A stretch of DNA of 64,000 nt from contig JAFURB010000003.1 of assembly GCA_017472065.1 (NCBI GenBank), forward strand, positions 16,524 through 80,523, written 5' to 3'. Below the pieces are notes generated by a model. That model ran no database searches and was not told the DNA's origin. It was given only the letters and a program-made list of their open reading frames with translations. The position numbers and the translations under genes were made by a program. Positions 1-34,281 of the stretch are shown here, piece by piece. How positions within the stretch are numbered: the first letter of the stretch is position 1; every line of letters starts with the position of its first letter. Origin of the DNA: Alphaproteobacteria bacterium. Its GTDB lineage: Bacteria > Pseudomonadota > Alphaproteobacteria > Rs-D84.

Positions 1-566
1 TCATACACCCGTGCATATGATGCAATATCCACCCCCGTCAGGACGATTTCGCCAAACCCAGCATCCACCGCCGCACGCACGTCGGATAAAATCTCGTCGT
101 ATTCAAATGAAACCGCACGCCCCCGCAACAGTCTTGTTACGCAATAGGTACAATCGTGATTGCATCCATTTTGAATTTGAATAAACTTCTTGGATAATTT
201 TTCATCAGTGCTGTGGAAATTCTTGATTGATGCGGCGCCGACTATGTTGCATGGCGTGCGCGCCATCGCATCTATATATGCATTAATATTTCTTTTTTGA
301 AAATTATCAACAACAATGACATTAGGTATATCACAAAACATTTCCGGGTTACGTGTTGCCGCGCATCCGGTAACGAAAATAGGTGTGTTTTTATTCTCGC
401 GCGCGATGCGGCGGACGGATTGTCCTGATTGTCGTTCGGCTTCGCCTGTGACGGCACAGGTGTTAACCACAATCGCCGTTTCCATAACATTTTTCAGCAT
501 ACTTTGAATCTTTTCAGATTCCAACGCGTTCAGCCGACAACCAAAAGATAACGTTTTAATACTCAT
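1..566 (-). CDS. Radical SAM methylthiotransferase, MtaB/MiaB-like; N-terminal 188 codons, C-terminus lies beyond the window start
   Basis: Manual reverse-complement translation from the ATG at 566-564 gives one open frame to position 1: MSIKTLSFGCRLNALESEKIQ...NTCAVTGEAE (MTTase N-domain) ... NGCNHDCTYCVTRLL (CxxxCxxC radical SAM) ... GFGEIVLTGVDIASY (MtaB-like). The ORF track does not list it (it runs off the window edge) and shows an out-of-frame 72-aa ORF instead. Confidence 0.75.
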   Translation of the reverse strand, partial: MSIKTLSFGCRLNALESEKIQSMLKNVMETAIVVNTCAVTGEAERQSGQSVRRIARENKNTPIFVTGCAATRNPEMFCDIPNVIVVDNFQKRNINAYIDAMARTPCNIVGAASIKNFHSTDEKLSKKFIQIQNGCNHDCTYCVTRLLRGRAVSFEYDEILSDVRAAVDAGFGEIVLTGVDIASYARVY

Positions 567-647
567 TTTTTTATTTTTCTGCTTGCATTTTTACTATCTA
601 TAAGGCATTATAACCAGGCTAAAAATGATTTCAACAAAGGATTTAAT

Positions 648-1040
648 ATGGCCCGTACAACAAATTCAGATACATTACCATATGTAGAAAGTCGTTATGA
701 ACTGGGGATGTTGGCATCTCAACGCGTTCGTGATTTGAACGGTGGTGCGGAACCGGTTGTGGACAAAGAAAACGACAAATTGACGGTTGTTGCCCTGCGC
801 GAAATTGCCAGTGGTAAATTAGATGTTAATGCCGTCCGTCATGAATTTGTACAATCTTACAAAGAAACACCGGCCATGTCTGATGGCGAAGAATCTTTGG
901 AAATTGGTACCGAAGATCCATTATTGCGCGAAATTGATGCGGAATTGGAAAACGCATTGGCGGACGAAGCGCCAATTGAAGATGCCGCAGATGTTATGGA
1001 CGAAGTAATGGCCGACGACATTGTCGTTAACGAAGAATAG
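648..1040 (+). CDS. rpoZ: DNA-directed RNA polymerase omega subunit, with an acidic C-terminal extension
   Basis: VESRYELGMLASQRVRDL matches the RpoZ signature helix; the 130-aa length is typical of the long-form omega in alphaproteobacteria. Confidence 0.85.
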   Translation: MARTTNSDTLPYVESRYELGMLASQRVRDLNGGAEPVVDKENDKLTVVALREIASGKLDVNAVRHEFVQSYKETPAMSDGEESLEIGTEDPLLREIDAELENALADEAPIEDAADVMDEVMADDIVVNEE

Positions 1041-1056
1041 TCTATTTACCAGACCC

Positions 1057-1147
1057 GGAGTCGTCGCATAGTTGGTCTAGTGCGCTACATTGGAAATGTA
1101 GTATACTCGCAAGGGTATCAAGGGTTCGAATCCCTTCGACTCCGCCA
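1057..1147 (+). tRNA. tRNA-Ser (anticodon GGA)
   Basis: Manual fold: acceptor GGAGTCG/CGACTCC, 3-bp D stem, anticodon stem CTACA/TGTAG with loop TTGGAAA, long variable arm, T-arm AAGGG-TTCGAAT-CCCTT, encoded CCA. Total 91 nt. Confidence 0.85.
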
Positions 1148-1157
1148 GGAATAAGCA

Positions 1158-1191
1158 AAACCCCGACAAAATCTGTCGGGGCTTTTTTTTT
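1158..1191 (+). terminator. Rho-independent terminator after tRNA-Ser
   Basis: Hairpin CCCCGACA-AAATC-TGTCGGGG followed by a T9 run. Confidence 0.7.
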
Positions 1192-1361
1192 AGCCGGATT
1201 CCAGCCACTTTTTTACCACAAAGTTACCAGTATGTACAACGAAGTTATCAAATGTTCGAATAATTCCACTGCTTACATACAATTGCCAAAATCCCGATGC
1301 CATTTTTGCCTTGAATAAACACGCTTTTTTGTTAATATCATAACCAAAAATAGGGTGTTGT

Positions 1362-2372
1362 ATGGTTGAAACAAATTTTAAAGCGGAAGCAAAATTGGTG
1401 CTGCCCGAAAAAGTAGATAGTAACATCGGTTGTTCTGTCAAAGTTTTATCCGAAGGCGTTGCTTCCTTGTGTAAACTACCGGAAAAGATATTTGATATAG
1501 TGACCAAATCAGGGGCTACACTGTTTAGGCCATTGGCGGCTTATTTAAATGGAAGGGCAGCTATTATGGAGGCACGGAGTTTTGTGGAATCGCAAAATAT
1601 TCGTAAAGAATTGAGTCAGTTTCAATTAGCAATTAATGTTGCACAAAATCTTGCGGCAAAACAGCAAGCAGGTCAAGAAGTCCCGAAAGAAATCGTTGAT
1701 ACTGATACTTTGTTTGCTATCCAAAATGCAGCGACAGAAACTACTGATAAAGATTTTTTAGAGTTTTGGGCACGCTTGTATACAGAAGAGGTTTGTAATC
1801 CGAATACGATAAGCAAAAAGACGGTCGAATTGTGTAAAGTCATAGATAGACAAGTCGCAGAAATTTTGGAAAAGAAAATATTTCCATATTGTGCTGATGG
1901 TTACTTTTTTGCTACTTACGAAATCGATGTGCATGATTTAAGCAGAATTGAAGATTATGGTTTTATTGCACAAAGAAGTACTGAAATAAGGCCAGAACAC
2001 CCATCTAATAATATTATTTTAAGCTTTGGCCAATATACAGTTGTGTGTAGATCGGGCTTTGCTATTGCACCTCCAATGCCAAAATTTTCTTTATCTATAT
2101 CTGGGGCAGAAATTCGAAATATAATTGCTCGTGATAACGTAGATGTTAATTTTGATATGCTAAAAAATAGTTTGACTTTAGCTTCAAAAAGCTGGAGGTT
2201 GTCCAAGAAGTTTAAAGGGAATATTGTTACACTTATGTCAGATAGAAATGTTGATACGAATTTTGTTATTGCCCAAGGCGACAAAATTATTTATCCAGAA
2301 AGTTGGCAAAATAAATCAATCGTAGATTATACTAATGCTTGTTTGGAGACACTAGATATTAAAACGTCATAA
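1362..2372 (+). CDS. Hypothetical protein (336 aa) between tRNA-Ser and the recombinase; possible island cargo
   Basis: Long ORF with ordinary codon usage. No motif I can assign with confidence. Confidence 0.5.
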   Translation: MVETNFKAEAKLVLPEKVDSNIGCSVKVLSEGVASLCKLPEKIFDIVTKSGATLFRPLAAYLNGRAAIMEARSFVESQNIRKELSQFQLAINVAQNLAAKQQAGQEVPKEIVDTDTLFAIQNAATETTDKDFLEFWARLYTEEVCNPNTISKKTVELCKVIDRQVAEILEKKIFPYCADGYFFATYEIDVHDLSRIEDYGFIAQRSTEIRPEHPSNNIILSFGQYTVVCRSGFAIAPPMPKFSLSISGAEIRNIIARDNVDVNFDMLKNSLTLASKSWRLSKKFKGNIVTLMSDRNVDTNFVIAQGDKIIYPESWQNKSIVDYTNACLETLDIKTS

Positions 2373-2374
2373 AC

Positions 2375-3967
2375 TTAATATAGTTGATTATCTCTCGCAA
2401 TCTGAAACAAATCATTAACATTGATATGTGCTTTACCGGACAAGATTTCATTAACCTTGTCCGGATTCATATATGCAATATCCAAGTGTCTGTAAAACTG
2501 GCGTGGCGAAGTGTGTTCTTCTTGGAATATTCTGTGGATATCCCCATCTCGTTCGTACATTTCCCTATATCTCCACGCCGTCGCGAAAGCCTTCAATATC
2601 AGGTGGTTGTTTTCTGTAATGCTCAGCGTCCCATTGCATCCACCGCCAAATCTGGTGTTGGCATATCGGCGCAGTACAACCGGTCGCACAATCGTTACAT
2701 TGTCGCCATTTACCGTATATTCCATTGGACTGTTATTATGATTGATATGATATGTAGATAAAAATGAATTATACAACCGTGGGTTGATGTTGATACAGAA
2801 TATCAGTTGTTCTTGTGAATAAGTTGCTCGTTCAATCATAACGCGAACCAATTCCCGTCTTTGCAGGTATGACAGGTCATTCCATACAATCCGTTTCAAT
2901 GCCATGACCACATTTTGGGGCAGGGCACTCACATCGCTGTCCAGAAATTCGGCTACAACTGACATGGCGATATCGTCCACCTGGGGTGCGGGCAGATAAA
3001 AGCCACGGGTTGCATAATAATGGGTGTTGGTTTTGCCTTTGCCACATGTTCGTTGATTGGTAAAGCGCACGCCGTTGTGATTAAACAGTTTGCCGGTCAA
3101 CAAATTGGGTGAACCGTGTGTTTCAGACTTGTTATTTGCGTTGTTTTGCAAGGCCGCTTGTACACGATTAAACAGTTCTGTGGGTAATATCGCCTGATGC
3201 TCGCCCGGGGCAGTAGTATTATTCGTCTTGTTCACAATTTGGCCGATATAAATCCTGTCACGCAATAATCGATGCATACTCATTTTGGCAATGGGTCGGC
3301 CACCCTTTATGATGCCTTTGGCGGTCGTCCATTGCTTTGCAAATATATTATGTGCCGCTGCATATTCGGTCAGCGCATTTACAGATTGCAGTTCTAGATA
3401 CTTTTCAAATAGTGTCCGAACTGTTGTGGCCTCAGCCTCATTCGGAATCAATTTTTTATTTATCACATCATATCCCAACCGTGGCATGCCACCCATCCAT
3501 ATACCTTTGGCTTTACTTGCGCGTATTTTATCTCGTACTCGTTCGCTGGAAACTTCGCGTTCAAACTGGGCAAATGATAACAGCATATTCAGCGTCAATT
3601 TACCCATAGATGTACTGGTATCAAAAGATTGTGTTATAGATACAAAGTTCGCGTTATACTTGTTGAAATACTGCATCATATTATGGAAATCCAGGATTGA
3701 GCGCGACAGTCGGTCCACCTTGTAAACCACCACGGTATTAACCAAGCCACGTGCCATATCGTCCAACATTTGTTTCAGGGCAGGACGTTCCATCGTCCCA
3801 CCAGAAATCGCAGCATCGCTGTATGTTTTACAATATTGCCACCCATTGAATGATTGGGATGCAATATATGCCTTGCATGCCTCTTCTTGGTTCTGCAAGG
3901 AGTTAAATTCCATGTCCAACCCATGCTCGGTTGATTTTCGTGTGTAAATCGCACATCTATTTGGCAT
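2375..3967 (-). CDS. Large serine recombinase (resolvase/invertase N-domain plus recombinase domain), 530 aa
   Basis: N-terminus RCAIYTRKSTEHGLDMEFNSLQNQEEAC carries the catalytic Ser motif (YxRxST...Q) of serine recombinases. VVYKVDRLSRS and a 530-aa length match the large serine recombinase family. Confidence 0.85.
   Translation of the reverse strand: MPNRCAIYTRKSTEHGLDMEFNSLQNQEEACKAYIASQSFNGWQYCKTYSDAAISGGTMERPALKQMLDDMARGLVNTVVVYKVDRLSRSILDFHNMMQYFNKYNANFVSITQSFDTSTSMGKLTLNMLLSFAQFEREVSSERVRDKIRASKAKGIWMGGMPRLGYDVINKKLIPNEAEATTVRTLFEKYLELQSVNALTEYAAAHNIFAKQWTTAKGIIKGGRPIAKMSMHRLLRDRIYIGQIVNKTNNTTAPGEHQAILPTELFNRVQAALQNNANNKSETHGSPNLLTGKLFNHNGVRFTNQRTCGKGKTNTHYYATRGFYLPAPQVDDIAMSVVAEFLDSDVSALPQNVVMALKRIVWNDLSYLQRRELVRVMIERATYSQEQLIFCININPRLYNSFLSTYHINHNNSPMEYTVNGDNVTIVRPVVLRRYANTRFGGGCNGTLSITENNHLILKAFATAWRYREMYERDGDIHRIFQEEHTSPRQFYRHLDIAYMNPDKVNEILSGKAHINVNDLFQIARDNQLY
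2572..2900. repeat. Copy 1 of a ~330-bp diverged direct repeat (an internal segment of the serine recombinase gene); copy 2 is at 14002-14329
   Basis: Nucleotide runs such as gaaccaattc(c/t)cgtctttgcaggtatgacag and ccacgccgtcgc...ttcaatatcag(g/a)tggttg are shared. The two ORF-track proteins align: ...VRVMIERATYSQEQLIFCININPRLYNSFLSTYHINHNNSPMEY... versus MVRVMIEQAVYSQEQLIFCININPRLYNSFLSTYHINHNNSPMEY... Confidence 0.7.
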
Positions 3968-4394
3968 TGTTGCCCCCTTTATTTAGTCCAAAGAACTTTG
4001 GACCTGAAATCTTTATGCCGGAAATCTCTTTCGCAATTCCAGACAACGTTCTGTAGGTTTGTCCGTTGTAACAAAACGTTCCATCGTCATTTGCTGTGAC
4101 ACAATGTTCGATTCCGCGGAATGTTCGTGTTATAACCGTGCCGGGACGGATATAGTACCGATTATGATACGCATGGGTGACACATTCTGTGGGATTGTCT
4201 TTGTATTTCTTTATCTTGGTCAGGAACTTTGGTTCAATCCGCAGTTTGAAGCGGTCGCATTGAATATAGTACCACAATGCCCGCATTTGTCGTTTGAATG
4301 GGTGTGGACTGTATTTAGCCCAAAGAGTCGCCCGATCTGCAAACGGCATTGCTCGCAGACCATCCAGTGTTGTTGGAAGTTCTATTTTCGCCAT
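3957..4394 (-). CDS. DUF2924-like protein (145 aa), overlapping and co-oriented with the serine recombinase
   Basis: C-terminal ...YNGQTYRTLSGIAKEISGIKISGPKFFGL resembles the conserved DUF2924 terminus (..SGPRFFGL) that is typically encoded just upstream of large serine recombinases. The 11-nt overlap with the recombinase start implies an operon. Confidence 0.6.
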   Translation of the reverse strand: MAKIELPTTLDGLRAMPFADRATLWAKYSPHPFKRQMRALWYYIQCDRFKLRIEPKFLTKIKKYKDNPTECVTHAYHNRYYIRPGTVITRTFRGIEHCVTANDDGTFCYNGQTYRTLSGIAKEISGIKISGPKFFGLNKGGNNAK

Positions 4395-4580
4395 AAATGC
4401 CTCCTTCTATGGTTGTGCAATTACTGCTTACAAAGCTTCTTAAATCAAGCAGAAAATCAAGTTTTTATAAAAATATTGTGTGTTTGTAAAAAATCTAGTT
4501 GGCAATCACTGTATATTATATAGCAATTCGAGTAAAAAATCTCCGTATTGCAATCTAAACAACAACCAAGGAGCTTTTTT

Positions 4581-5885
4581 ATGAAAACTTTAACAATAGA
4601 AAACGTGGCGCTAAATCAAATACGCGCCTATGCGAAAAACGCAAAAAATCATCCAGAAAGCCAAATCCAGCAGATAGCAGCATCTATTCAGCAGTTTGGG
4701 TTCAATAATCCGATACTAGTGGACGAAAATCTGGAAATCATTGCCGGGCACGGTCGTATGGCTGCCGCCCAATTATTGGGGCTGGATACCGTGCCAGTTA
4801 TCCGTCTGGCGCATTTATCAGATGCACAAAAGCGTGCCTATCGCCTGGCTGATAACAAAATCGCCGAAAACGGTGGCTGGAATGCAGATTTGTTGCGGTT
4901 GGAAATATCCGAACTGGAACAAATCTGTGGCGATATGGACGTATCTATTACGGGATTTTCAGATATCGAACTGGATACCTTGACTATGGATAATAGGACG
5001 ACAGCGGATTCCAAGGCAAATAATGTGCCGTACATCCCAGAAAACGAAATTGTAACACGCCCCGGTGATGTGTGGTGTATTGGCGACCATAGAATTATTT
5101 GCGGAAACAGTCTGGATGCGACGACATTTGAAACGCTGCTTGGCACGCGTCAGGCAGATATGGTTCTGCAAGATCCGCCATACAATGTCAAAATATCAGG
5201 GCATGTATGCGGTTCGGGCAATATCCGGCATAAAGAGTTTAAAATGGCATCTGGCGAGATGAGTACAGATGAGTTCACGCAGTTTTTGCACAAGAACTTT
5301 GAATTGTGTGCGAAACATTCTCGCCCTGGGGCATTACAGTACAATTTCATGGATTGGCGCCACATGGGCGAAATATTGTCCGCAGGAACCGATGCGTTTT
5401 CAGGCCTGATAAACATGTGTGTTTGGTGCAAGACTTCGGGCGGTATGGGCAGTCTGTATCGTAGTCAACACGAACTCTGCTTTATTTTCAAAAACGGCAA
5501 GGAATCACACACCAATAATGTTCAGCTTGGTAAAAATGGGCGTTATCGCACAAATGTTTGGCAGTATGCGGGCGTAAATGCCTTCGGCAGGCACAGGTCA
5601 GACATTCAAATGCATCCGACTGTAAAGCCGGTTGAAATGCTGAAAGATGCGATACTCGACGTCACACGGCGTGGCGATGTTGTGTTGGATACATTTCTTG
5701 GATCGGGCAGTACATTGATTGCCGCCCACCAATCCAAACGCATTTGTTATGGCATTGAACTGGAACCACTGTACGTGGATACTGCTATCCGCAGGTTTTT
5801 AGAAATGTTTCATATCGATGCTGTACATCAAGCATCTGGCAAAACGTATTCGGAATTATTAACCGCAAAGCGAGAGGTGTCGTAA
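4581..5885 (+). CDS. ParB-like nuclease domain fused to a DNA methyltransferase (N6-adenine/N4-cytosine, beta class); phage-type
   Basis: N-terminal ParB/Srx-like region (ILVDENLEIIAGHGRMAAAQLLG). MTase motif IV VLQDPPYN precedes motif I VVLDTFLGSGST (order IV then I gives beta class). RBS aaggag lies 7 nt upstream of the ATG at 4581. Confidence 0.75.
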   Translation: MKTLTIENVALNQIRAYAKNAKNHPESQIQQIAASIQQFGFNNPILVDENLEIIAGHGRMAAAQLLGLDTVPVIRLAHLSDAQKRAYRLADNKIAENGGWNADLLRLEISELEQICGDMDVSITGFSDIELDTLTMDNRTTADSKANNVPYIPENEIVTRPGDVWCIGDHRIICGNSLDATTFETLLGTRQADMVLQDPPYNVKISGHVCGSGNIRHKEFKMASGEMSTDEFTQFLHKNFELCAKHSRPGALQYNFMDWRHMGEILSAGTDAFSGLINMCVWCKTSGGMGSLYRSQHELCFIFKNGKESHTNNVQLGKNGRYRTNVWQYAGVNAFGRHRSDIQMHPTVKPVEMLKDAILDVTRRGDVVLDTFLGSGSTLIAAHQSKRICYGIELEPLYVDTAIRRFLEMFHIDAVHQASGKTYSELLTAKREVS

Positions 5886-6253
5886 TGGCAGATTATGAAT
5901 TGGGCTATATGAAACCGCCTAAATCGGGACAGTTCAAACCAGGTCAATCTGGTAACCCAAAGGGGCGACCAAGTGGCAGCAAAAATATTTATAAATTACT
6001 GGATGACATTGTAAACGAAAAGATTCAAATGACCAAAAATGGCAAGCCAGTAAAAATAAGCAAAAAGCAAGCCATGCTATTACAGGCGACAAACAAGGCT
6101 GTGCAAGGCGATTTAAAAGCGTTGCAGACTCTGCTGCCTGTGATGGCAGAAGCAGACAATAAAAATGAAGAACTTGCCAAAGCAGCCACAGCTATTCGGC
6201 AGGACGACATAGAAATATTAAAACAGTATTTAAAGGAAAACAACAATGAATAA
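5885..6253 (+). CDS. Putative terminase small subunit-like protein (DUF5681-like)
   Basis: N-terminal KPPKSGQFKPGQSGNPKGRPSGSKN motif. Position is immediately upstream of, and overlapping, the large terminase. Start codon overlaps the stop of the preceding gene (ATGA). Confidence 0.4.
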   Translation: MADYELGYMKPPKSGQFKPGQSGNPKGRPSGSKNIYKLLDDIVNEKIQMTKNGKPVKISKKQAMLLQATNKAVQGDLKALQTLLPVMAEADNKNEELAKAATAIRQDDIEILKQYLKENNNE

Positions 6254-7697
6254 AGAAATTATGAATGCAATATTACGTACAGATTTTAAATCTTTTGTGG
6301 TAAAGGTGTTTAACGAGGTATCTCCTGGTTCACATTACCTGAACAATTGGCATATTGATGTCATTTGTGACGCAATTATGGATATGTACGAAGGGCGACA
6401 TAATCGCCAGATTATAAATATGCCACCGCGGTATATGAAAAGTATGATATGTTCAATCGCATTGCCGGCGTGGATACTGGGACATAACCCAAAGGCTCAA
6501 ATACTTTGTGTCAGTTATAATGATGAACTGGCAGAAAAATTCGCGATCAGTTGTCGTGACGTTATGCAATCGGATTGGTATCGTGAACTTTTCCCAATGA
6601 CACGTTTGCATCAATCCAGGCAGGCTGTAAACGATTTTGCAACCACACGTGGTGGCGGACGCATTGCCGCATCTGTTGGCGGAACATTGACCGGTCGTGG
6701 CGCAGATTGGATAATCATAGACGATCCACAGAAATCTGTGGATGCAACATCGGAAACCCAGCGTGCCAAATTGAATGAATGGTATGGCTCTACGTTATAT
6801 TCGCGTCTTAATGACAAGGCAAATGGCAAAATTATACTGGTAATGCAACGTCTGCATCAGGATGATTTAACTGGACATTTGTTGGAGTTGGGCGAACAGT
6901 TCAATATCATTAAGCTGCCCATTATTGCAACCGAGGATGAAAACTGGATGGTCAAGAATCGCATTTCTGGTAAAGTGCGAGTAATTACGCGTGCCAAGGG
7001 CGAATTGCTGCACACAGAACGTGAAAATATGGATGTTGTGACAAGCATAAAGAACTCTATGGGTGAAAATGCATTTGTTGCCCAATATCAACAAGATCCA
7101 TGTCCACCAGAAGGCGGAATTATTAAAGAGTCATGGCTACACTACTATACCAAGGCACAGGGTGAATCCATAGATCCAGCTAAGTATTGCAGAATTTTTC
7201 TTAGCTGGGATACAGCCAATAAAACTGGGCCAAATAATGCGTATTCCGCTTGCTGTGTTATATTGATGACACGCGAATCCAATATGTATAAATACTACCT
7301 GCTAGATGTTGTTCGTGGCAAATGGGAAATGCCCGACCTTATCAGACAAGTGGAAAAAGTGTATTGCTATTGGAAGTATGAAAAGGGTGGACAACATTTG
7401 GTAAGATTGTTAATAGAAGATAAGGCGAGTGGAACGCAATTGATACAAATGCTAATGGCACAAAGAGACCGTCATGGATACAATTTTGCAATTGAACCAA
7501 TAAAGCCCGATACAGATAAGACATCAAGATTAATGGGGGCTAGTGCTTATATAGAAAACGGTACATTACGTTTTCCACAAGAGGCGCCTTGGTTGTCAGA
7601 TTTCAAGAAAGAACTATTAGGATTCCCTAATGGTAAATACAAAGACCAAGTTGATGCCTTAACACAATGTATAAATTATGTGGTACAACATTCATGA
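6246..7697 (+). CDS. Phage terminase large subunit (483 aa)
   Basis: Terminase_6/GTA-type TerL features: ...NNWHIDVICDAI..., ATPase Walker B IIIDDPQK, C-terminal nuclease region ...FLSWDTANK... DQVDALTQ. Confidence 0.8.
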   Translation: MNKEIMNAILRTDFKSFVVKVFNEVSPGSHYLNNWHIDVICDAIMDMYEGRHNRQIINMPPRYMKSMICSIALPAWILGHNPKAQILCVSYNDELAEKFAISCRDVMQSDWYRELFPMTRLHQSRQAVNDFATTRGGGRIAASVGGTLTGRGADWIIIDDPQKSVDATSETQRAKLNEWYGSTLYSRLNDKANGKIILVMQRLHQDDLTGHLLELGEQFNIIKLPIIATEDENWMVKNRISGKVRVITRAKGELLHTERENMDVVTSIKNSMGENAFVAQYQQDPCPPEGGIIKESWLHYYTKAQGESIDPAKYCRIFLSWDTANKTGPNNAYSACCVILMTRESNMYKYYLLDVVRGKWEMPDLIRQVEKVYCYWKYEKGGQHLVRLLIEDKASGTQLIQMLMAQRDRHGYNFAIEPIKPDTDKTSRLMGASAYIENGTLRFPQEAPWLSDFKKELLGFPNGKYKDQVDALTQCINYVVQHS

Positions 7698-7730
7698 ATC
7701 AATGGGGTGTTCGCCCCATTGATTATTTGT
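7697..7730. terminator. Bidirectional terminator between the terminase (+) and a lipoprotein gene (-)
   Basis: Hairpin AATCAATGGGG-TGTTCG-CCCCATTGATT flanked by T and A runs. Confidence 0.55.
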
Positions 7731-8289
7731 TGTCGGCAGGTGCCATCAATTTGTTCTTGCATTCAGAATGCCAGTTGGCCGTATAAACAAAGTGACCGCA
7801 ATAACTTTTGGTTATATCTTTTCTATCTGTATAACAATAGTTTGTTATGTCAACAAACCTGCCATCGTTTAGTCTTTCGGTGCGTATGGTTTTATCAAAC
7901 ATAAAATCTGCATTTTTGAACTGTTTTATGCTCCCAACCGTCCACTTATCCATTGTGCCAATATTACGAACTCTAAGATGTTGTTGGTCCATGCACTCAT
8001 CTATAGAATTTCCTGCGGAACATTCTAACAAACTGGTATAGAAAACTTGTCCTTGCTCTTTCTTGTTGACCCAGGGTTGGTCAACAGATTTTTCACTAAC
8101 AAGGACAATGTATCTACCTGGACTTTCTTCTGTGTGTATAATTGTTTTATCAGAATATCCCATACATTCTTGATATTTAGCCAATGGTTTTTCTATGGGG
8201 ATGTTCGGTTTTGTATTGTCGGATATAGGGGATTGAGCCGATCCGCAACCAAATAATATTATTGTTAGAACGGGTGATAATTTTTTCAT
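7723..8289 (-). CDS. Lipoprotein (188 aa)
   Basis: Signal peptide with lipobox MKKLSPVLTIILFGCGS. Confidence 0.6.
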   Translation of the reverse strand: MKKLSPVLTIILFGCGSAQSPISDNTKPNIPIEKPLAKYQECMGYSDKTIIHTEESPGRYIVLVSEKSVDQPWVNKKEQGQVFYTSLLECSAGNSIDECMDQQHLRVRNIGTMDKWTVGSIKQFKNADFMFDKTIRTERLNDGRFVDITNYCYTDRKDITKSYCGHFVYTANWHSECKNKLMAPADNK

Positions 8290-8304
8290 TGTTATTTCCC
8301 CTTT

Positions 8305-8850
8305 TTATCTTTTCCTGTCTTTGTACGGAACGCGCTTATCTCTACCAGACAAACAGTTTAATTTAAAATAACAATTTTTATCTAACAAACATATTGGACT
8401 AAATAATACGGAAAGTGGTGTATAAACAATTGTTGCACCGCCGCCACAAAAAAATGATTGGTAATATTTTCTTTCTTCTTTTGGAAAGTCTGTGTCGTAT
8501 TTTTCTAATGCTTCCTTATACTTTGCCTCTAGTCCCATATCATTATCAATTGTATAATCTGGAACGGTTTTTACAGTTCCCCATGCAGACGTATAACGAT
8601 ATACTCCAACTTGTTTTACACCGTCTACAGAATACACCCCACCATCCACAATATCCGACTTCATGTTGTCTATTGTAAAATGCCCTAAGTTATTCCTGTA
8701 ATACGCAAGAATTTCATCGTCATCAATAACCTGCAATACCTCTATATTGTCGGCAGTATAATCTGGTTGCAATTTTGGAGCATCGGGGTAATCTGGTTCC
8801 ATACACCCAGTTAAAGCTAGTGCTAAAAAAGATAGATTAAACTTCTTCAT
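8305..8850 (-). CDS. Lipoprotein (181 aa)
   Basis: Signal peptide with lipobox MKKFNLSFLALALTGCME. Confidence 0.6.
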   Translation of the reverse strand: MKKFNLSFLALALTGCMEPDYPDAPKLQPDYTADNIEVLQVIDDDEILAYYRNNLGHFTIDNMKSDIVDGGVYSVDGVKQVGVYRYTSAWGTVKTVPDYTIDNDMGLEAKYKEALEKYDTDFPKEERKYYQSFFCGGGATIVYTPLSVLFSPICLLDKNCYFKLNCLSGRDKRVPYKDRKR

Positions 8851-8861
8851 CTTATCCGTCC

Positions 8862-9110
8862 TTATTTTGGTAGCTTATATTTTTTGCTGTTTTTAATATA
8901 AATATCACGCACAATCCATAAAGCACCATTAATGACTTTTTTGCTTTCTTCTGTGGAACCAAGCCATCTCCAACCGCGTTTGGATACGCCTGTTTTTTCG
9001 TTTGGTCTTTTGGCGTCTATACCGTCAATATATGAATAAGTGCTTTCTTGAATCAGAATGTTGTCAGAAATCTCAATAGTAGAGTGTAATACACCTGCGG
9101 ATTTTGCCAT
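8862..9110 (-). CDS. Small hypothetical protein (82 aa)
   Basis: ORF co-oriented and tightly spaced with the upstream lipoprotein genes. No recognisable motif. Confidence 0.35.
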   Translation of the reverse strand: MAKSAGVLHSTIEISDNILIQESTYSYIDGIDAKRPNEKTGVSKRGWRWLGSTEESKKVINGALWIVRDIYIKNSKKYKLPK

Positions 9111-9124
9111 TGGCTTCTCCCTTT

Positions 9125-9350
9125 TTATAAATTAATGACCGCCAACGGAATTGACGGTCGGGGAGTTGGTGTCAGCAAACGAATGCTCCGCAGCCTTCGG
9201 GCAAGCCCTGTTTTATAGCAAACGGCTCCCCGACCAAAGTCGGGGGATTTTAACGACAAATGCCGCGTCTGCGGGCCACCACAGCCCCGAACCCAATTCC
9301 CATTGGATTCAAACAATAACTTAGCATTAATATGTAGACAAATCAAGCGA
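9125..9350. other. GC-rich, hairpin-dense intergenic segment; candidate structured RNA or regulatory element
   Basis: About 58% GC in a ~38% GC context. Several stem-loops, e.g. GGCTCCCCGACC-AAA-GTCGGGGGATTTT and GACCG-N13-CGGTC. The 73-aa ORF the track calls here is basic and low-complexity and looks spurious. Confidence 0.25.
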
Positions 9351-9424
9351 GTAATAGTTTATTCTATGGAATTTTTAATAAATTTATGCTATGTTCTCGA
9401 TGGTAGCCAAGGAATTATGCATAA

Positions 9425-10168
9425 ATGCTATTTAATGTTACGCTATTTTCGGAAGATAATATAACAATCAGTGTCTTTGATGTAGAGGAACTTTCCGATG
9501 AACTAAAGTGCTTTATTGATGACAATATTCATCAAATATGCCTAGGAGAACCGGGTGATTTGTCGTGCGTAAAATTAGATTTAAGAGATAGAATTAATGG
9601 ATGGAATGATGATAACAAAAAAATAGGTTCTATTGCGGAATTTTTTGTGCATTTATACTTAAAACATGAAGGTTATCAGCAAGAATGCTTGTTTTTTAAT
9701 CTCGAAGAAAGGTCATTAAAAAAAGGCTTTGATGGCGTGTATTCTATTGGAGAGCAGCTTTGGTTTGTGGAAAGCAAGTCTGGTTTTATAAGCACGTCTG
9801 GAGTAACACATGCATCTAAGATACGAGAAGCTTATAATGATGTAAAAACAAAAATAACTACTGGTGTCAGTAATAATCCATGGTTAAACGCTTATAATCA
9901 TGCAAGGGTTGTAAAAACTAAAAAAAAGTTACGTGATACTTTAAAACAAATATCTGATGATTTTATTAATCATAGATATCAGACGATTGATGATAAAAAC
10001 ATAATACCGTGCGCAACTATATTCTTAAATGGTATATGGCAGCCACAAGATCATGCAAATATTATAGAGATGGTAAAAAGTATATCAACATTACATGGGA
10101 AAAATATTCATGCCATTTGTATAACACAAAATAGTTATGAAGTCTTTATGCGGTATTTAGAGGATTAA
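9425..10168 (+). CDS. HamA-like protein (putative PD-(D/E)xK nuclease, DUF1837-like); first gene of a Hachiman-like pair
   Basis: 247 aa. ...GFDGVYSIGEQLWFVESKSG contains a D...E-x-K arrangement. Its stop overlaps the start of the downstream helicase (TAAAATGAG). The family assignment rests on size, motif and gene context only. Confidence 0.4.
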   Translation: MLFNVTLFSEDNITISVFDVEELSDELKCFIDDNIHQICLGEPGDLSCVKLDLRDRINGWNDDNKKIGSIAEFFVHLYLKHEGYQQECLFFNLEERSLKKGFDGVYSIGEQLWFVESKSGFISTSGVTHASKIREAYNDVKTKITTGVSNNPWLNAYNHARVVKTKKKLRDTLKQISDDFINHRYQTIDDKNIIPCATIFLNGIWQPQDHANIIEMVKSISTLHGKNIHAICITQNSYEVFMRYLED

Positions 10169-10169
10169 A

Positions 10170-12602
10170 ATGAGTGATTCTAGAAAAATATCGAATCTGA
10201 AAAGTATTAAGCCTGTTCGGGCCGTTCTAAAAAAATTATTTTTATCAGATGATACTATTGACGAAGAAGAAAAGCAATTTTTATTAACCGTAGCGATTGT
10301 ATTGCTTAATCAATATCAAGCGGATACATCACACAAAACAGCTTTTGAATTGGCGTATTTTATTGTTTTAAAATATTCAATTATGTTTCAAGATTGGCAA
10401 CCTTTGTATGATTTTGCACTAAATTATGGCTTTTATCCAATCTCTAATGCGATTATTAATAATAAAGGGATGCTTCCTAATATCACAACAGAAACTTTGA
10501 CCGTGGCAACAGAGTCTCAGTTTAAACATAATGATATTGTAGAAACGAAAGAACAAAATAGATCCAGAAGGGGGGTGTTAGCTACAGATGAAGCGTATGT
10601 AAGCTATGTTGCTCCAACATCTTTCGGAAAAAGTCAGGTTATTATTGAACATATAAGGCAAAATATAGCTTCTTATAACAAGTTCGCTATAGTTGTCCCC
10701 ACAAAATCATTGTTAATGCAAACATATAAAAACATAAAATCAGGTTTTACAAATGTTAGGGTATTAATACATGATGAAATGTATAGTGAAACCGATGAGA
10801 GATTTATTGCTGTATTTACTCAAGAAAGAGCATTGAGATTATTAGAAAAACACCAAAATATACATTTTGATGTTTTGTATATAGATGAAGCACATAAATT
10901 ATTAGAAAATTCAGATAGGAGTGTCTTGCTAACACGATTGGTAAGATTGGCAATGTATCGTAACAATCGCATAAAAATAATATATTTGTCCCCATTAATT
11001 CAAAATATTAATAATATTTCAATATCTGGTCAAAGTATAGAACCGCATAAAATATCAATTAACATAAAGATTCCTACGATTTATGAATATACAAATTCTG
11101 GAGATGTATTAATTTATAATCGATTTTTTGATGAATTTTATGCGAATGCTCATTTAGATGTTGATTATTTGCGGTATATAGAAACAAAATCAACAGATAA
11201 AAATTTTATATATTTGTACACTCCAATAAAAATAGAACGTTTTTCTAAAAGACTGTTTGAGTCTATAACGGAGATTCCTGTAAACGATGATGTTGTGCAG
11301 GTAATAGATAATCTAAATAAATATGTACATGAAGATTTTTATGTGTCTAAGTATTTGCGCAAGGGTATTATTTATATCCATGGAAAAATACCAGATGATA
11401 TAAAAGATTATTTGGAGTTCAAATTCAATACTATTAAAGAAATAAGATACTTGGTTGCAAACAATGTGATATTAGAAGGTGTAAATTTACCGTTTGATTC
11501 TTTGTTTATTATTGATTCACGGGGGCTAGATAAAAATTCATTAATAAATTTGATTGGCCGGGTGAATCGATTAAATATGGTATTTACAAGATCTATTGAC
11601 ACTCTATCAAAATTATTACCAGCAATACATTTTGTTGAAAATAATGAATTTTGTACTTGTAGTATGGCAAATAAAATCAAGCTGTTACAGACATCGGATT
11701 TTGTTGACGAGGTTGAAAACCCGCTATTGGATAGTTTTAATTTAGAAGCCGAAAAGAATGTGGAAAAACGTCATAAATGTGAAGAAACTATTAGAAATGA
11801 AAATTTGGTATTTTTAGAAACAGCAAGCGATGTACAAGTTCTAAAGCAAAATATGTTAAAACTTAGCATGAATGTGATATACAGCATAACAGACGAAGTG
11901 TGTGCCGACATTTTATCAAGAATTAACGGTTATAAAGAACAATATGGGATGCTATCCGATACAAAAAATGTATTTAACTTATTGTATCAGATATTCATAG
12001 AGCGGCTAGAGGAGACCATAAAGGATGAAGAATTTAAACGTTTGATAAATAATGCAAGTAGAGAGTATTATTATAAATTAATAGTAAAGCATAGAAAGAA
12101 GTCGTTAAAAGAGCAGATCTCTTTGACTGCCAGATATTTATATGGTCTTAAAAGAAATAGTGCCAATCCTCGTCTGTTCATAGGTTCTTCATACGGAGAG
12201 TGTGATGCTTTTGGTAATCCTTTTACAAATAAACATTTTTATATAGATGTTGGGGCAAAAAATTATTCTGAAATTGTAAATTTGTCTATAGTGAAGATAA
12301 AATTAGAGGAGGATTTTGTGAGTTTTAAACTGAATAAGTTCTTTCAGTTAATGCTGGATTATGAGCTTATATCAAGAGAGCTTTATAATGATTTAGTATA
12401 TGGCACTAATAACCCTTTGATTCTTATGTTGAGTAAACAAGGGCTAAGTCTGAATATAATAAACAAACTCATCAAAGATGAGCAATTGGGTAATTTATCA
12501 ATCGATAATTTTGGGAATTTATCATATAATGAACAATTTGCAGCATACAAAGAAACCTCTGATGACTTTTTTAAATTTGAATTAGATAAATTCTTACCAT
12601 AA
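10170..12602 (+). CDS. SF2 DExH-type helicase (810 aa), HamB-like; second gene of a Hachiman-like pair
   Basis: Walker A VAPTSFGKSQV, motif II LYIDEAHKL, motif VI LIGRVNRLN. The helicase core sits in the N-terminal half with a long C-terminal region, as in HamB. Confidence 0.6.
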   Translation: MSDSRKISNLKSIKPVRAVLKKLFLSDDTIDEEEKQFLLTVAIVLLNQYQADTSHKTAFELAYFIVLKYSIMFQDWQPLYDFALNYGFYPISNAIINNKGMLPNITTETLTVATESQFKHNDIVETKEQNRSRRGVLATDEAYVSYVAPTSFGKSQVIIEHIRQNIASYNKFAIVVPTKSLLMQTYKNIKSGFTNVRVLIHDEMYSETDERFIAVFTQERALRLLEKHQNIHFDVLYIDEAHKLLENSDRSVLLTRLVRLAMYRNNRIKIIYLSPLIQNINNISISGQSIEPHKISINIKIPTIYEYTNSGDVLIYNRFFDEFYANAHLDVDYLRYIETKSTDKNFIYLYTPIKIERFSKRLFESITEIPVNDDVVQVIDNLNKYVHEDFYVSKYLRKGIIYIHGKIPDDIKDYLEFKFNTIKEIRYLVANNVILEGVNLPFDSLFIIDSRGLDKNSLINLIGRVNRLNMVFTRSIDTLSKLLPAIHFVENNEFCTCSMANKIKLLQTSDFVDEVENPLLDSFNLEAEKNVEKRHKCEETIRNENLVFLETASDVQVLKQNMLKLSMNVIYSITDEVCADILSRINGYKEQYGMLSDTKNVFNLLYQIFIERLEETIKDEEFKRLINNASREYYYKLIVKHRKKSLKEQISLTARYLYGLKRNSANPRLFIGSSYGECDAFGNPFTNKHFYIDVGAKNYSEIVNLSIVKIKLEEDFVSFKLNKFFQLMLDYELISRELYNDLVYGTNNPLILMLSKQGLSLNIINKLIKDEQLGNLSIDNFGNLSYNEQFAAYKETSDDFFKFELDKFLP

Positions 12603-12610
12603 TAAAATAA

Positions 12611-12641
12611 AAATTCCCTGTTATTTGTTTAGGGAATTTTT
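12611..12641 (+). terminator. Terminator after the helicase gene
   Basis: Hairpin TTCCCTG-loop-AGGGAA followed by a T run. Confidence 0.45.
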
Positions 12642-12946
12642 TACGGGAAGTGGATAATATGCGACTTGGGCGTGGTGCAAAATTGGTTTTTGGGACAAAA
12701 ATGGCAAAATTTCCCTGTAAATTCCCTGATGTTGTATGCAAAAGACCGTAGAAAAGTCTTACTCCGCCAGGAAATTAAAATCAAAACCGCCCAAATTGGG
12801 CGTTTTGTTTTTGTGTTGACAGTTAAGAAAAAGCATATTAGCATTAGTAGCGTGACTTGTGATGACTAATGTTATCGCAAACATTATCCGCCAATGTGGA
12901 TAGATATTAAATAGGGTTCATCGCCCAAAACTCAAAGGAGTGAAAG

Positions 12947-13933
12947 ATGAAAAAAATCTACGACGATCCTAATATCGTTATATATTCAAAAACCGAAACA
13001 GATCCCGTTTTTCAAGAAATAAAAACATCTGATGGCAAATGTTTTAATACATCAAAACCGACTATTTATGATTTGGGAATTGGCCTTGGGGCTGCGGAAT
13101 TGATGTTTATAAACCCAAATACGGGCGAATGGCTTCATGGTGGTGATGGTGAAATTATACCAATAAGCACAAAAGCGAACAAAGTAGTGTTTAATGAAAA
13201 GGTATGGTCGTTAAGCGGGTTGGCAACACATTTGCAGAGCAAATATCCAGAATCTAAATGCCCAGAAGCTCAGGTATATGACTTTTTTGCATATGGAAGC
13301 AAAGCCGATACATTGGCAAAGAAAGAACGAGAATTTTTGGAAAAATACTATAAAATTTCCATACCAAAGGGGCGTCTTGAATTATTGGCAGAACAAAGGT
13401 ATTTGGCGGAACAAAAAAAATACGACGCAAATGATTTACCCATATTTGACGTACATAAAGATGTGTATAAAATCGTAGACTGGCAAAACGATGATTTGAC
13501 ATCTGTAAAGGGATTTAAATGGTCTATTGATGGCACAAAATTTGCTGGCGAAACACGAAAATTTAAAGAGATGTTTAAGCAAATCGTTTCTTGTTTGTAT
13601 AATCATATGCCACGGGTTTTGGATATTGAAATGATTCGCATATTGTCGGAATCTGATGCGTTATTTAATCCCACAATTAAAAAAATAATAGGTGTTTCTG
13701 GTGAAGTGCCTGTGGTAAATGGCAATATTGATGGCCTAGAGTTTTCTAATATTCCAAATAATCACAGACATATTGATACATATACGGACAGTATGTGGAT
13801 AGAAGTAGTTCCGGAGTGGCTTTACATTTGGGGGTTGTATTCCAATAATGATTTAAAAAAGAAGTTACAAATATTATTAAAATTATATGGAATAGAACCA
13901 AATATGTTAAAAATATCAATCCAAGAACACTAA
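12947..13933 (+). CDS. Hypothetical protein (328 aa); candidate island cargo
   Basis: Clean ORF with RBS aaggag, ending at a hairpin terminator. No recognisable domain. Confidence 0.5.
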   Translation: MKKIYDDPNIVIYSKTETDPVFQEIKTSDGKCFNTSKPTIYDLGIGLGAAELMFINPNTGEWLHGGDGEIIPISTKANKVVFNEKVWSLSGLATHLQSKYPESKCPEAQVYDFFAYGSKADTLAKKEREFLEKYYKISIPKGRLELLAEQRYLAEQKKYDANDLPIFDVHKDVYKIVDWQNDDLTSVKGFKWSIDGTKFAGETRKFKEMFKQIVSCLYNHMPRVLDIEMIRILSESDALFNPTIKKIIGVSGEVPVVNGNIDGLEFSNIPNNHRHIDTYTDSMWIEVVPEWLYIWGLYSNNDLKKKLQILLKLYGIEPNMLKISIQEH

Positions 13934-13989: not shown

Positions 13990-14329
13990 CTACGTCTTGC
14001 GCCACGCCGTCGCAAACGCTTTCAATATCAGATGGTTGTTTCCTGTAATGCTTAGCGTGCCATTGTGTCCGCCCCTAAATCTGGTGTTGGCATATCGGCG
14101 CAGCACAACCGGTCGCACAATCGTCACATTATCGCTATTTACCATATATTCCATTGGACTGTTATTATGATTGATATGGTATGTAGATAAAAATGAATTG
14201 TACAACCGTGGGTTGATGTTGATGCAGAATATCAGTTGTTCTTGCGAATAAACTGCCTGTTCAATCATAACGCGAACCAATTCTCGTCTTTGCAGGTATG
14301 ACAGATCTTCCCACTCAATCCGTTTTAAT
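13990..14329 (-). pseudogene. Truncated internal fragment of a serine recombinase gene (copy 2 of the duplicated segment, 14002-14329)
   Basis: The 96-aa ORF and the sequence upstream of it are roughly 85-90% identical to residues ~335-440 of the recombinase at 2375-3967. The catalytic N-domain and the C-terminal end are both missing. Confidence 0.7.
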
Positions 14330-14357
14330 ATGCTGGTTGGCTTTTTGCAAGGTTAAG

Positions 14358-14465: not shown

Positions 14466-14573
14466 TAAGTCACCACTGGCATGATTATATCACTTGTATA
14501 AATAATGTCAAATAGTTTGATTTTATGCCCAATATTGTATACCATAATTACAAATTATTACAAAGGTGCGGAC

Positions 14574-17500: not shown

Positions 17501-18134
17501 GTTACGTGTGAACGGCAAAACGTCCAAGGCCGATTTGAAAACATTGGTGCCCGTGTTTAACAAACAGCATCCCGAATATAAAAGATTAAAACAGCAATAT
17601 ATTGATGCGTATGCCCAGTGGCGCACGGACAAAAAAGATCGCCAGAAAATAAGAAACTTGATGGCTTGTATATCACGTGACAAGGTATTCAAGTGGTTGG
17701 CCAGTGGTGGTAATTATGCGACTGAAATTTATACAAATGGCAAAAGCGCTGTTTGGTCATCGGATATTATGTCGAATTGGTGGGCTTTGCAACGCGGCGG
17801 TCGTTTCTGGTGGCGCGATGATTATCCAAATGGAAAATGCATAATGAAATTACGCATCGGCAGCAAGATTCGTGTAATGCATGAAAACGCAACACTTTTG
17901 AAAGAACAAAGAAATATTGGGAAATGGGTGATAAGTCAGATAGAACACGGTCGTGATTTGTTGTTTCGGGTCAAAAAGTTAACAGGTACAAACATTTACT
18001 TGACGCCGGTGCATGTCGCACTTGAAAAACCCGATGATACAAAAACATGGCAGGCCTCGGCACGTTCACTACAAAAAGTATCTGCACAGATTGTTGAAAT
18101 ATCTGTTCTGGGCGATGTTGTTGAACTAAAATAA
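14574..18134 (+). CDS. cas9: Cas9 endonuclease (1186 aa), type II-C-like
   Basis: RuvC-I MKYKLGLDLGSTSLGWAV; Arg-rich bridge helix RRKMRRKQLF; HNH YEIEHIIPRSIGGDDTWANKILTRKDHNLAKGN; RuvC-III NHYHHALDAFVIA. The track ORF starts 23 codons earlier; the ATG at 14574 follows RBS AAAGG and matches the conserved Cas9 N-terminus. There is no csn2 or cas4 in the locus. Confidence 0.9.
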   Translation: MKYKLGLDLGSTSLGWAVVELGDNDEILRLVDMGVRIFPDGQEHSPTGVKSLASVRSEKKQQRLQTDRRKMRRKQLFSKLVETGLLPTDKEMLKELLNPGIGNGNRTNPYELRNKAVEEQVSLYELGRILWHLSKHRGFSGKRDQDIDIQSTKQQVEPSETDNAKEAKNVNKRIERLRHEIASAGVKTLGQYLHKKYEENKSVRFTALEASTGQSSGFPSRKLYQEEFETIWKKQEKYYPNILNEQLKKELRDDIMYFQRPLAQQPVGKCKFEKSEDRIAKCYPLYQEYRILQDINDLELDGTPLPDEYRMAIYHMLMNPNAVDEMIDGNGRLSFDKIREHLNIIGRFNLEHIGNRGLLCNKTNKVMSSDAVFGDKWFDFDAETQEKIIYEITAYHKTKNQSKEALQEMGIKDDALIERLLKKHSLLTKGYSELSAMAIKRVLPAMKNGKKWHEAAAEKYGKHTVVRPYYTFGYNPPKQLPDYRKLFHESLTNGKIGNVTVHIGLNQLRAVINALIERYGHPYSIAIEMARELKMGKKALDIYRRKQWQNQKFNIDARRKINDVLGRSYDSAVSSGEMERYKVWYNLNPKNENQRYDWYDSSDTPLISLRDALSSEYEIEHIIPRSIGGDDTWANKILTRKDHNLAKGNMLPYQYLSESQLARAKRWAKDSDDVRKTESQRKEEEKAIRAGKPVPFVFNSFAWRFESNAGSHINKDFKSRDLNDTRYLCKVARDYLSYICVGYSHAEKQRTPYVIASNGTMTSLFKDIWELNDCLPYDYDKWSIQDWQRDIMKQRIFERLFKDDPEFGVYDKEKTASKAKQDAEKKQIEEELKNTPDSEFLKISSRKKDRTNHYHHALDAFVIACLDNKMVQEINARANEFADMRDKWNRQNDADKEKSLQQIRKEQIQKEYTKPFGGFDKNLLAKTLADLVVAEKQQPDKLQQYLSGKSKGVASFTQDTAFGIADEEYFDDGYIMLRVNGKTSKADLKTLVPVFNKQHPEYKRLKQQYIDAYAQWRTDKKDRQKIRNLMACISRDKVFKWLASGGNYATEIYTNGKSAVWSSDIMSNWWALQRGGRFWWRDDYPNGKCIMKLRIGSKIRVMHENATLLKEQRNIGKWVISQIEHGRDLLFRVKKLTGTNIYLTPVHVALEKPDDTKTWQASARSLQKVSAQIVEISVLGDVVELK

Positions 18135-21786: not shown

Positions 21787-21981
21787 CGCGATGGTGGTGG
21801 TCATGTGCATATCAAAACGGGTCATCCCCGTTCGTGGTTACGGGGATAGTAATTATTGGTTGTAATCTTATTATGCTTGTATTCATAATTATGTTCAAGT
21901 GTCTTTTATAAGATGATTTTCATATGATGGGTATCTTTATACCTCTTTTCTTTGTGTGAAATATATGATATAATACCAAAC

Positions 21982-32282: not shown

Positions 32283-32319
32283 TACTATTAAAAATCAAAT
32301 AGCATAAAAGGGGATTTGC

Positions 32320-34269: not shown

Positions 34270-34281
34270 AAAGGGGAAAGT

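Follow-up and report, generated by a model that had tools for sequence, protein, structure and literature searches.

Can an element that encodes a terminase, but no capsid, be more than the remains of a prophage? The question is raised by a locus near the left end of a 64,000-nucleotide stretch of an Alphaproteobacteria bacterium of the GTDB lineage Rs-D84 (GenBank assembly GCA_017472065.1, contig JAFURB010000003.1, positions 16,524 to 80,523 of the forward strand), hereafter the window, to which all unassigned positions refer. An initial annotation, made from the letters alone, had placed at 2375-8850 an element with a serine recombinase and a phage packaging module, to be read either as a degraded prophage or as a satellite-type element that uses a helper phage for packaging. 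Comparison with related loci (cited below by their L numbers) shows that this is an island, inserted at a specific site and spread by horizontal transfer. Its core is a module of five genes, namely a recombinase, DUF2924 and the trio of a ParB-type methylase, DUF5681 and the large terminase TerL. The best reading, which we hold with somewhat more confidence than doubt, is that of a satellite-like island that depends on a helper, is equipped with a terminase of its own and has defence genes as cargo.

Limits and integration module of the island

The integration target is a tRNA-Ser(GGA) gene (1057-1147, plus strand, identified by ARAGORN and Rfam), which follows rpoZ (648-1040, plus strand, profile searches). 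The 3' end of the tRNA gene forms the left attachment (att) core, attL (1139-1151, plus strand), which is the left copy of a 13-bp direct repeat, ACTCCGCCAGGAA. The repeat comprises the tRNA-Ser 3' end plus four bases and occurs exactly twice in the 64 kb, against 0 copies expected from shuffles. Its right copy (12761-12773) ends the right-end block blkB (12611-12773, plus strand), where it is preceded by a T-arm-like hairpin, and is followed by a further hairpin (12774-12810, plus strand) that corresponds to the native tRNA-Ser terminator, pushed to the right of the insertion. This last assignment comes from an empty site present in L175/L176, two metagenome contigs of a related species with 70-74% identity to the rpoZ region, in which the tRNA-Ser core joins directly to the terminator found right of the second repeat in the window. 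Hence, 1152-12773 is an insertion, and the mobile island spans 11,622 bp. The initial annotation had proposed such a comparison with an empty site; its extent of 2375-8850 proved too narrow, as a DUF2806 gene, an RNA leader, the Hachiman genes and blkB also belong to the element.

Concerning the relatives, the same rpoZ/tRNA-Ser(GGA) site is occupied in L011, a tRNA-Ser(TGA) with a 17-bp repeat is used in L001, a pseudo-tRNA end precedes the recombinase in L007, and a mirror layout adjoins tRNA-Tyr in L029, L044 and L048. Core-to-core sizes of the relatives that can be delimited are 11.6, 11.8, ~12.0 and 14.7 kb despite unlike cargo, with 11.6 kb for the window. The element is thus satellite-like in size, being about one third as long as a related 39.6-kb phage contig. 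Its left arm, block X (1152-1330, plus strand), consists of a terminator-like hairpin (1161-1181) plus ~150 bp, and in L001, L004, L009, L011 and L012 a homologue of it comes after the core of the tRNA or of blkB. We propose block X as the P' arm and blkB as the P arm of attP; block X possibly also holds the promoter region of the first cargo slot. As seen by comparison with relatives, blkB and another conserved short block (9105-9324) flank the variable defence cargo. In L001, ~125 bp after both cores are 91% identical, therefore serial insertion or homologous exchange also shapes the junctions.

To the right of the terminator, the segment 12947-14334 appears to be the left-hand stump of another island in tandem, ending just before the Cas9 gene. 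It holds a 328-aa gene (12947-13933, plus strand) followed by a 110-aa recombinase fragment (13990-14334, minus strand) that is 92% identical to residues 357-466 of the island recombinase, and the duplicate is also seen in the DNA. Tandem and multiple copies occur in several genomes. It should be noted that in L004 a phage late region (1-4440; Mtd with the reverse transcriptase of a diversity-generating retroelement (DGR), holin, HNH) abuts the island at a pseudo-tRNA-Ser 3' half-site. Prophage and island stand there in tandem at one tRNA, therefore phages and islands share the site, and the arrangement is a candidate helper context.

The presumed integrase is a large serine recombinase of 530 aa (2375-3967, minus strand) with Resolvase (PF00239, 2.5e-39) and Recombinase (PF07508, 2.1e-11) domains. 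It matches the PHROG integrase family (1.5e-88) and occupies the integrase position, adjoining the left att site. The nearest NCBIfam models are CcrB, XisF and CcrC, all far below their curated cut-offs, and Zn_ribbon_recom is not among its Pfam matches. Its nucleophile, S12 in RKSTE, is invariant in an alignment of relatives. The enzyme itself presumably uses the repeat core. In the alignment of close relatives, conservation exceeds 90% over the N-terminal 334 aa, while the C-terminal third (2375-2964 in the window) is ~50% identical and diverges faster; the latter may set target-site (tRNA) specificity. A swapped C-terminal cassette was also considered, as blastn homology starts inside the gene, and was discarded on the protein alignment, which gives full-length homology with a faster-evolving C-terminal third.

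DUF2924 (3957-4394, minus strand; Pfam 4.4e-20) lies directly upstream of the recombinase, as it does in the relatives, where both co-occur. Its AF2 model (pLDDT 78) gives only a weak match to the MPND DNA-binding domain. DUF2924 is a putative DNA-binding accessory or directionality factor; it could also act as a regulator, but the fold match is weak. In L007 (5169-8130) a class-Ib aminoacyl-tRNA-synthetase-like gene separates the recombinase from DUF2924, and a Fic/helix-turn-helix gene and a second short DUF5681-like open reading frame (ORF) precede the methylase; the core therefore tolerates insertions.

Packaging genes without virion genes

The trio is encoded on the plus strand. Its first gene is a ParB_N/N6_N4_Mtase fusion (4581-5885, as called in L170 from the ATG at 4581; the longest ORF starts from the TTG at 4548), whose methyltransferase domain matches PF01555 (5.5e-30). 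In the translation DPPY (..VLQDPPYNV..) stands ahead of FLGSG (..DTFLGSGST..), and since motif IV (DPPY) is N-terminal to motif I (FxGxG) the enzyme is assigned to the beta-class N6A/N4C methyltransferases. DUF5681 (5885-6253, plus strand; Pfam 1.3e-23), with SGNPKGRP at residues 22-29, follows in the small-terminase position and overlaps the start of TerL (6246-7697, plus strand). TerL is full length (PHROG_38 2.2e-111; Terminase_6C 6e-12; TIGR01630 above cut-off). In 25 sequences, down to 51% identity, its Walker-A-like motif PPRxxKS, the DD of Walker B and the acidic residues of the nuclease are invariant (P60, P61, R62, K65, D159, D160, D322, E391, D467 and D470). The integration and packaging genes of the island are conserved and look catalytically competent. 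A hairpin terminator is predicted at the convergent junction of TerL and the minus-strand operon beyond it (7697-7724).

All genes that the initial annotation had read from the letters are thus confirmed at the positions given, with DUF2924 and a large serine recombinase on the minus strand, and a ParB/beta-class methyltransferase fusion, the protein with the GNPKGRP motif and a large terminase on the plus strand. For the small-terminase-like protein, the motif and the small-terminase (TerS) slot are there, but a fold or profile match to known TerS proteins is not. A profile search of the PDB with DUF5681 gave no small-terminase match, hhalign against the Aaphi23 and CRP-902 TerS proteins found only the NPxGRPK motif in common, and Foldseek of the AF2 model against the PDB returned no TerS fold. 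DUF5681 fills the same slot, before TerL and portal, in a true phage (L119, see below), and its gene position makes it a candidate small terminase.

The element is without virion, replication or lysis genes. Portal, capsid and tail genes were not found anywhere in the 64 kb, in agreement with the initial annotation. The search employed 158 head-region proteins whose genes come right after TerL in true phages that have a related TerL (phmmer, E<1e-3): none matched the six-frame translation of the whole window, and in ~100 related loci they matched only in L105, an unrelated Mu-like phage contig. The ORFs at 7700-9400 gave no match in Pfam, PHROG, NCBIfam or PADLOC; the capsid or portal homologues that would have refuted the initial annotation were thus not detected. 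For the candidate ORFs downstream of TerL in relatives Pfam gives Rad52, DnaB, methylase and ApeA. An AlpA/MerR/Stl-type regulator domain was not found in any ORF of 1152-12773 with Pfam, PHROG and NCBIfam, nor was a primase, helicase or Rep domain found in the element other than the Hachiman helicase. A host head-tail cluster, looked for as a test of a gene transfer agent, was not found in the window or in the 10-kb flanks of the ~100 loci.

The module is widespread. TerL has thousands of homologues, dozens of which are 83-87% identical, always 483-484 aa long and located on large chromosomal contigs. The neighbourhoods of five TerL homologues show the same order, i.e. recombinase, DUF2924, methylase, DUF5681 and TerL, then 2-3 small minus-strand genes, followed by defence cargo that differs each time (Hachiman; DUF4238 with reverse transcriptase and helix-turn-helix genes; an unknown pair; SIR2 with pAgo). 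The trio is present in ~100 of the fetched genome and IMG/VR loci, and in about two thirds of them DUF2924 and the recombinase lie within 10 kb of it (<=10 kb). All four relative arrangements occur, the pair being upstream or downstream of the trio and in either orientation; in the compact layout B it comes directly after TerL, and in L029, L041 and L044 TerL and the recombinase are separated by cargo. When species-representative genomes were scanned, the window fell into Candidatus Enterousia, a gut alphaproteobacterium represented by metagenome assemblies only, and the module was found in other Alphaproteobacteria, Gastranaerophilales, Vampirovibrio (Melainabacteria), Acidobacteriota, Akkermansiaceae (Verrucomicrobiota), Anaerolineaceae, Nitrospirae and Binataceae.

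IMG/VR holds many 4-13-kb contigs that consist of just module genes. The same is true of a GenBank entry of 5,365 bp from human faeces (MT839917.1), which carries the five module genes only; 'Bacteriophage sp.' is its deposit label, and no mention of MT839917 was found in the literature searched. A 37.5-kb contig classed as viral (L178/L179, IMGVR_UViG_3300029904_000303) has 2-3 module copies arrayed with unlike cargo between them.

The five genes are under strong purifying selection. Among the window and five relatives, pairwise dN/dS is 0.04-0.2 for each gene (~0.1 for the recombinase, 0.04-0.11 for DUF2924), there are no frameshifts and all ORFs are full length. The per-gene identities are mosaic, differing from gene to gene within the same element pair, which therefore points to recombination among elements.

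This is where the first of the two original alternatives has to be weighed, according to which the locus is what remains of a prophage after loss of its head, tail, lysis and regulation genes. It would agree with the phage homologues of all five genes, with the truncated recombinase copy nearby and with a weakly tail-fibre-like ORF at 35357-36010. Such decay is hard to reconcile, however, with the low dN/dS and the intact reading frames, with an identical reduced gene set in >100 loci of several phyla that form one TerL clade, with layout B, where a recombinase directly after TerL leaves no room for lost genes, and with defined ends and an empty site. The degraded prophage is rejected because the genes are intact and under selection, the gene set is recurrent, the TerL clade is distinct and the ends are clean, and we regard it as very improbable.

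A phage ancestry is a different matter. A neighbour-joining tree of 151 TerLs unites all capsid-less loci in one clade, with true phages as its sister branch. One phage locus, L119 (IMGVR_UViG_3300020046_008302), encodes a ParB-methyltransferase, DUF5681, TerL, Phage_portal, MuF, an S78 protease and an HK97 capsid, and Wolbachia phage WO has DUF2924 immediately upstream of its recombinase and a ParB-methylase/terminase/portal order (PMC10299305). It follows from the single TerL clade, the phage sister branch and the L119 and WO layouts that the family is a reduced, since radiated descendant of temperate HK97-head phages such as these two, of which it has retained just the integration and the packaging module.

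Cargo, RNA leader and surroundings

Two slots of the island are variable. Slot 1, between the tRNA and the recombinase, holds one gene, here for a DUF2806 protein (1362-2372, plus strand; Pfam 9.7e-10) and elsewhere for DUF4238, DUF2321 or Hypoth_Ymh. Slot 2 holds a Hachiman system (9425-12602, plus strand) composed of HamA (9425-10168) and HamB (10170-12602; PADLOC 3.5e-47); the HamA Pfam domain is recorded on the first-gene protein in L170 and on the L001 orthologue. The GC content of Hachiman is 0.28-0.32 vs 0.39-0.46 for the core genes. To survey the cargo, a sample of 132 non-redundant neighbour proteins was compared with the PADLOC models, yielding matches to type I restriction-modification, Septu PtuA, SIR2-pAgo and CBASS cyclases and effectors, as well as to AbiEii, DRT UG13a, DISARM DrmMII, SoFic and several candidate (PDC) systems.

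A module that always sits among defence genes could itself be one. In such a case the trio would be an anti-phage system, whose resident terminase competes with that of an invader, mis-cuts its concatemers or titrates its procapsids, while the methylase marks self; island DNA would never be productively packaged, and the recombinase would move the island only within and between replicons. A catalytically intact TerL under selection and the third of the loci that have no nearby recombinase are in line with this idea, and passages in the literature describe characterised satellites that block helpers via terminase interference as well as defence systems that target packaging. However, DUF5681, TerL, DUF2924 and the recombinase are without a match among the PADLOC models, and a methylase without a partner nuclease other than TerL corresponds to no known scheme of self/non-self discrimination. 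Moreover, the integrase linkage, the tRNA sites, the tandem arrays and the cross-phylum spread point to an element selected for its own transfer. We therefore consider an exclusively defensive trio unlikely, although interference and satellite transfer are not mutually exclusive.

Between TerL and slot 2 lies a small-protein operon (7723-9110, minus strand), which together with Hachiman matches the earlier description of lipoproteins and defence genes after the terminase. Two of its genes (7723-8289 and 8305-8850) encode lipoproteins, with the lipoboxes LFGC and LTGC at the start of the translations, and the third an 82-aa protein with no signal peptide (8862-9110). The operon gave no family match in Pfam, PHROG, NCBIfam or PADLOC, and its gene set varies among relatives (clusters c5, c8, c12, c20 and others).

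Directly 5' of this operon, the conserved block 9105-9324 (blkA) contains a structured RNA leader on the minus strand, with 8 helices and 45 pairs, that ends in a terminator-like hairpin (9137-9159) followed by a Shine-Dalgarno sequence and the ATG. The strand follows from one-sided pair changes, which preserve G-U wobble pairs on the minus strand only, the plus strand having A-C mismatches instead. With a covariance model, 24 instances were identified in 22 loci, always directly 5' of the small-protein genes beside TerL, on whichever strand these are. In the alignment, which was fitted to the model and is thereby biased towards the structure, 96.6% of cells are paired vs 31-56% in slid controls, and 38 of the 45 pairs show compensatory changes. 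The case for a new structured RNA motif is thus well supported by covariation, and the RNA would act in cis as a regulatory leader of envelope-related genes, in the manner of a riboswitch or by antitermination. The block had also been considered as an att site or as a plus-strand RNA, and was rejected in both roles on the minus-strand-only wobble pairs.

The RNA matched no Rfam family, and the window copies gave no sRNA-Xcc1 match even at E-value cut-offs of 10 and 5. A longer variant with an inserted domain (L041, 13803-13890, minus strand) scores 41.4 bits against sRNA-Xcc1, which we take to be an integron-cassette sRNA (E 4e-6 in a 381-nt search), below the 53-bit gathering threshold. A second copy of the RNA is located outside the island at 31065-31330 (plus strand), upstream of a glycosyltransferase/pyruvyl-transferase/radical-SAM operon (31449-35328).

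Beyond the tandem stump, the window contains a CRISPR-Cas locus, with a 1209-aa Cas9 (HNH, RuvC_III; 14505-18134, plus strand), a divergent Cas1 (18448-19383, minus strand), both from profile searches, and an array (19505-21800) that alternates 35 repeats (36 nt each) and 34 spacers (30-31 nt). The 34 spacers gave only chance matches of 16-17 nt to all fetched loci, and two of them compared with IMG/VR gave no match, so that the spacers did not lead to a helper phage. From 22.3 kb on the window is housekeeping. Within this part, beside a tRNA-Arg (36496-36572), the 217-aa ORF at 35357-36010 (minus strand) shows weak Mtd_N (26.2 bits) and Gp53-like tail-fibre C-terminal matches, and may be a relic of a DGR-bearing phage like that beside the L004 island. 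A single 3507-aa ORF (53474-63997, minus strand) runs towards the window edge.

The position of the CRISPR-Cas locus bears on a third explanation, in which the island does not excise at all and is packaged in situ by headful, from an internal pac site and rightwards, so that Hachiman and the Cas9 locus would be exported in helper capsids in the manner of lateral transduction (gene-transfer-agent-like). The packaging genes do point towards slot 2 and the CRISPR-Cas locus, a replication gene is absent from the element, and the Terminase_6C domain places TerL in the Terminase_6 group, which includes headful packagers. Passages of one report describe lateral transduction of defence genes by phages and also by PICIs, the phage-inducible chromosomal islands (PMC12829572). 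Nevertheless, the orientation of trio and cargo is not fixed, as seen in the loci with cargo between TerL and recombinase and in layout B; the unit would move as a whole, judging from clean att repeats and an empty site; and a near-constant length of ~11.6-12 kb fits unit packaging better. This mode of export is consequently quite unlikely.

Proposed transfer and comparison with known systems

In the favoured reading, a helper-dependent island with its own terminase, the recombinase, probably helped by DUF2924, would integrate the circular element into the tRNA 3' end and excise it; the integration step is partly shown by the direct repeat, the empty site and the tandem copies. When a compatible HK97-type helper grows in the cell, DUF5681 and TerL would recognise and cut the element DNA, which would then be pumped into helper procapsids by headful, as ~11.6-kb multimers or with adjacent DNA. 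The methyltransferase would methylate the packaged DNA beforehand and so protect it from restriction once it enters the next host. The island would pay its way with the cargo of its two variable slots, the second of which lies beyond the small-protein operon that is presumably controlled by the structured RNA. Intact genes, recurrence, the TerL clade and the defined ends all fit the satellite alternative of the initial annotation, which is left incomplete in that no helper phage, excised circle or encapsidated copy was found.

This absence is the first of several points that weigh against such a transfer. The predicted attP junction of an excised circle (blkB-core-X) was not found in an IMG/VR scan, and direct terminal repeats, as a sign of circularity, were present in 0/80 IMG/VR contigs. 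A terminase has to dock on a portal. Known TerL-encoding satellites, the capsid-forming PICIs (cfPICIs), also encode a portal of their own. Neither a replication gene nor a recognisable regulator for sensing a helper is present in the element, whereas characterised satellites usually have both (PMC10085698). DUF5681 shows no fold or profile likeness to solved or annotated small terminases beyond the short basic motif. In about one third of the loci a recombinase is missing from the nearest 10 kb, and there the trio may have become immobile. Part of the repeats could stem from serial insertions or homologous exchange instead of recombinase-catalysed integration, and a large serine recombinase at a tRNA 3' end with a shared core of 13-17 bp is unusual.

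A wider formulation can be offered only tentatively, with doubt prevailing over confidence. The loci would then represent a new pan-phylum satellite class, the 'terminase island', with a complete packaging motor, made up of a TerS-like protein, TerL and a protective methylase, plus an integrase and no replication, capsid or regulatory genes. It would out-compete the helper terminase for procapsids and be a major vehicle, by unit or lateral packaging, for defence exchange in uncultured gut and soil bacteria, its small-protein operon being under the new riboswitch-like or antitermination RNA.

The large family is apparently undescribed. The literature search found no description of the module, with DUF2924 appearing only in Wolbachia work and DUF5681 only in phage work. 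It may be related to a circular virome scaffold of 15.8 kb, listed with genes for 'ParB, Terminase, Resolvase', that was regarded in 2015 as a putative satellite (PMC4490671). If the satellite reading is true, the minimal gene set of a satellite becomes an integrase and a packaging motor, and the host range of satellites extends to Acidobacteriota, Melainabacteria, gut Alphaproteobacteria and Verrucomicrobiota, where none is known. It would also explain the many short 'viral' contigs of IMG/VR that hold terminase and recombinase alone, and give a concrete route for the horizontal spread of Hachiman, pAgo, CBASS, Septu and DRT in uncultured bacteria. Furthermore, two domains of unknown function would gain a role, and a large serine recombinase that targets tRNA genes and is accompanied by a DUF2924 protein could be of use in genome engineering.

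Compared with known systems, the element is satellite-like but a member of no named satellite family (PICI, cfPICI, P4). It resembles PICIs and SaPIs in being a chromosomal island of ~10-15 kb with site-specific integration and no virion genes, in having a gene at the TerS position, and in its accessory (defence) cargo beside the integrase and after the packaging genes (PMC10085698). It differs from PICIs in its serine, not tyrosine, integrase, two types that SatelliteFinder treats as exchangeable (PMC10085698), in its own TerL and ParB-methyltransferase, and in that no AlpA/MerR/Stl regulator, primase-replicase or capsid-size gene was detected in it; its host range, moreover, covers phyla where PICIs are not described. 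Among described satellite families, only the cfPICIs encode both TerL and TerS (PMC10085698). The island shares with them the terL gene, but lacks all of their capsid, portal, protease, head-tail adaptor and connector genes.

The order of ParB_N-methylase, DUF5681-type small protein and TerL is that of phage WO and L119, where portal, protease, capsid and tail genes follow, whereas none does in the island clade. Satellite P4 is of about the same size as the ~11.6-kb island and is helper-dependent with variable defence cargo slots. In contrast to P4, the island has its own terminase, and has neither a P4-type primase nor Sid/Psu/Delta nor the cos-based use of a helper terminase. Finally, the Ccr-like large serine recombinase, the chromosomal cassette with variable cargo and the tandem arrays at one site recall SCCmec, although SCC elements are devoid of packaging genes and use orfX/rlmH rather than tRNA genes as their insertion site.

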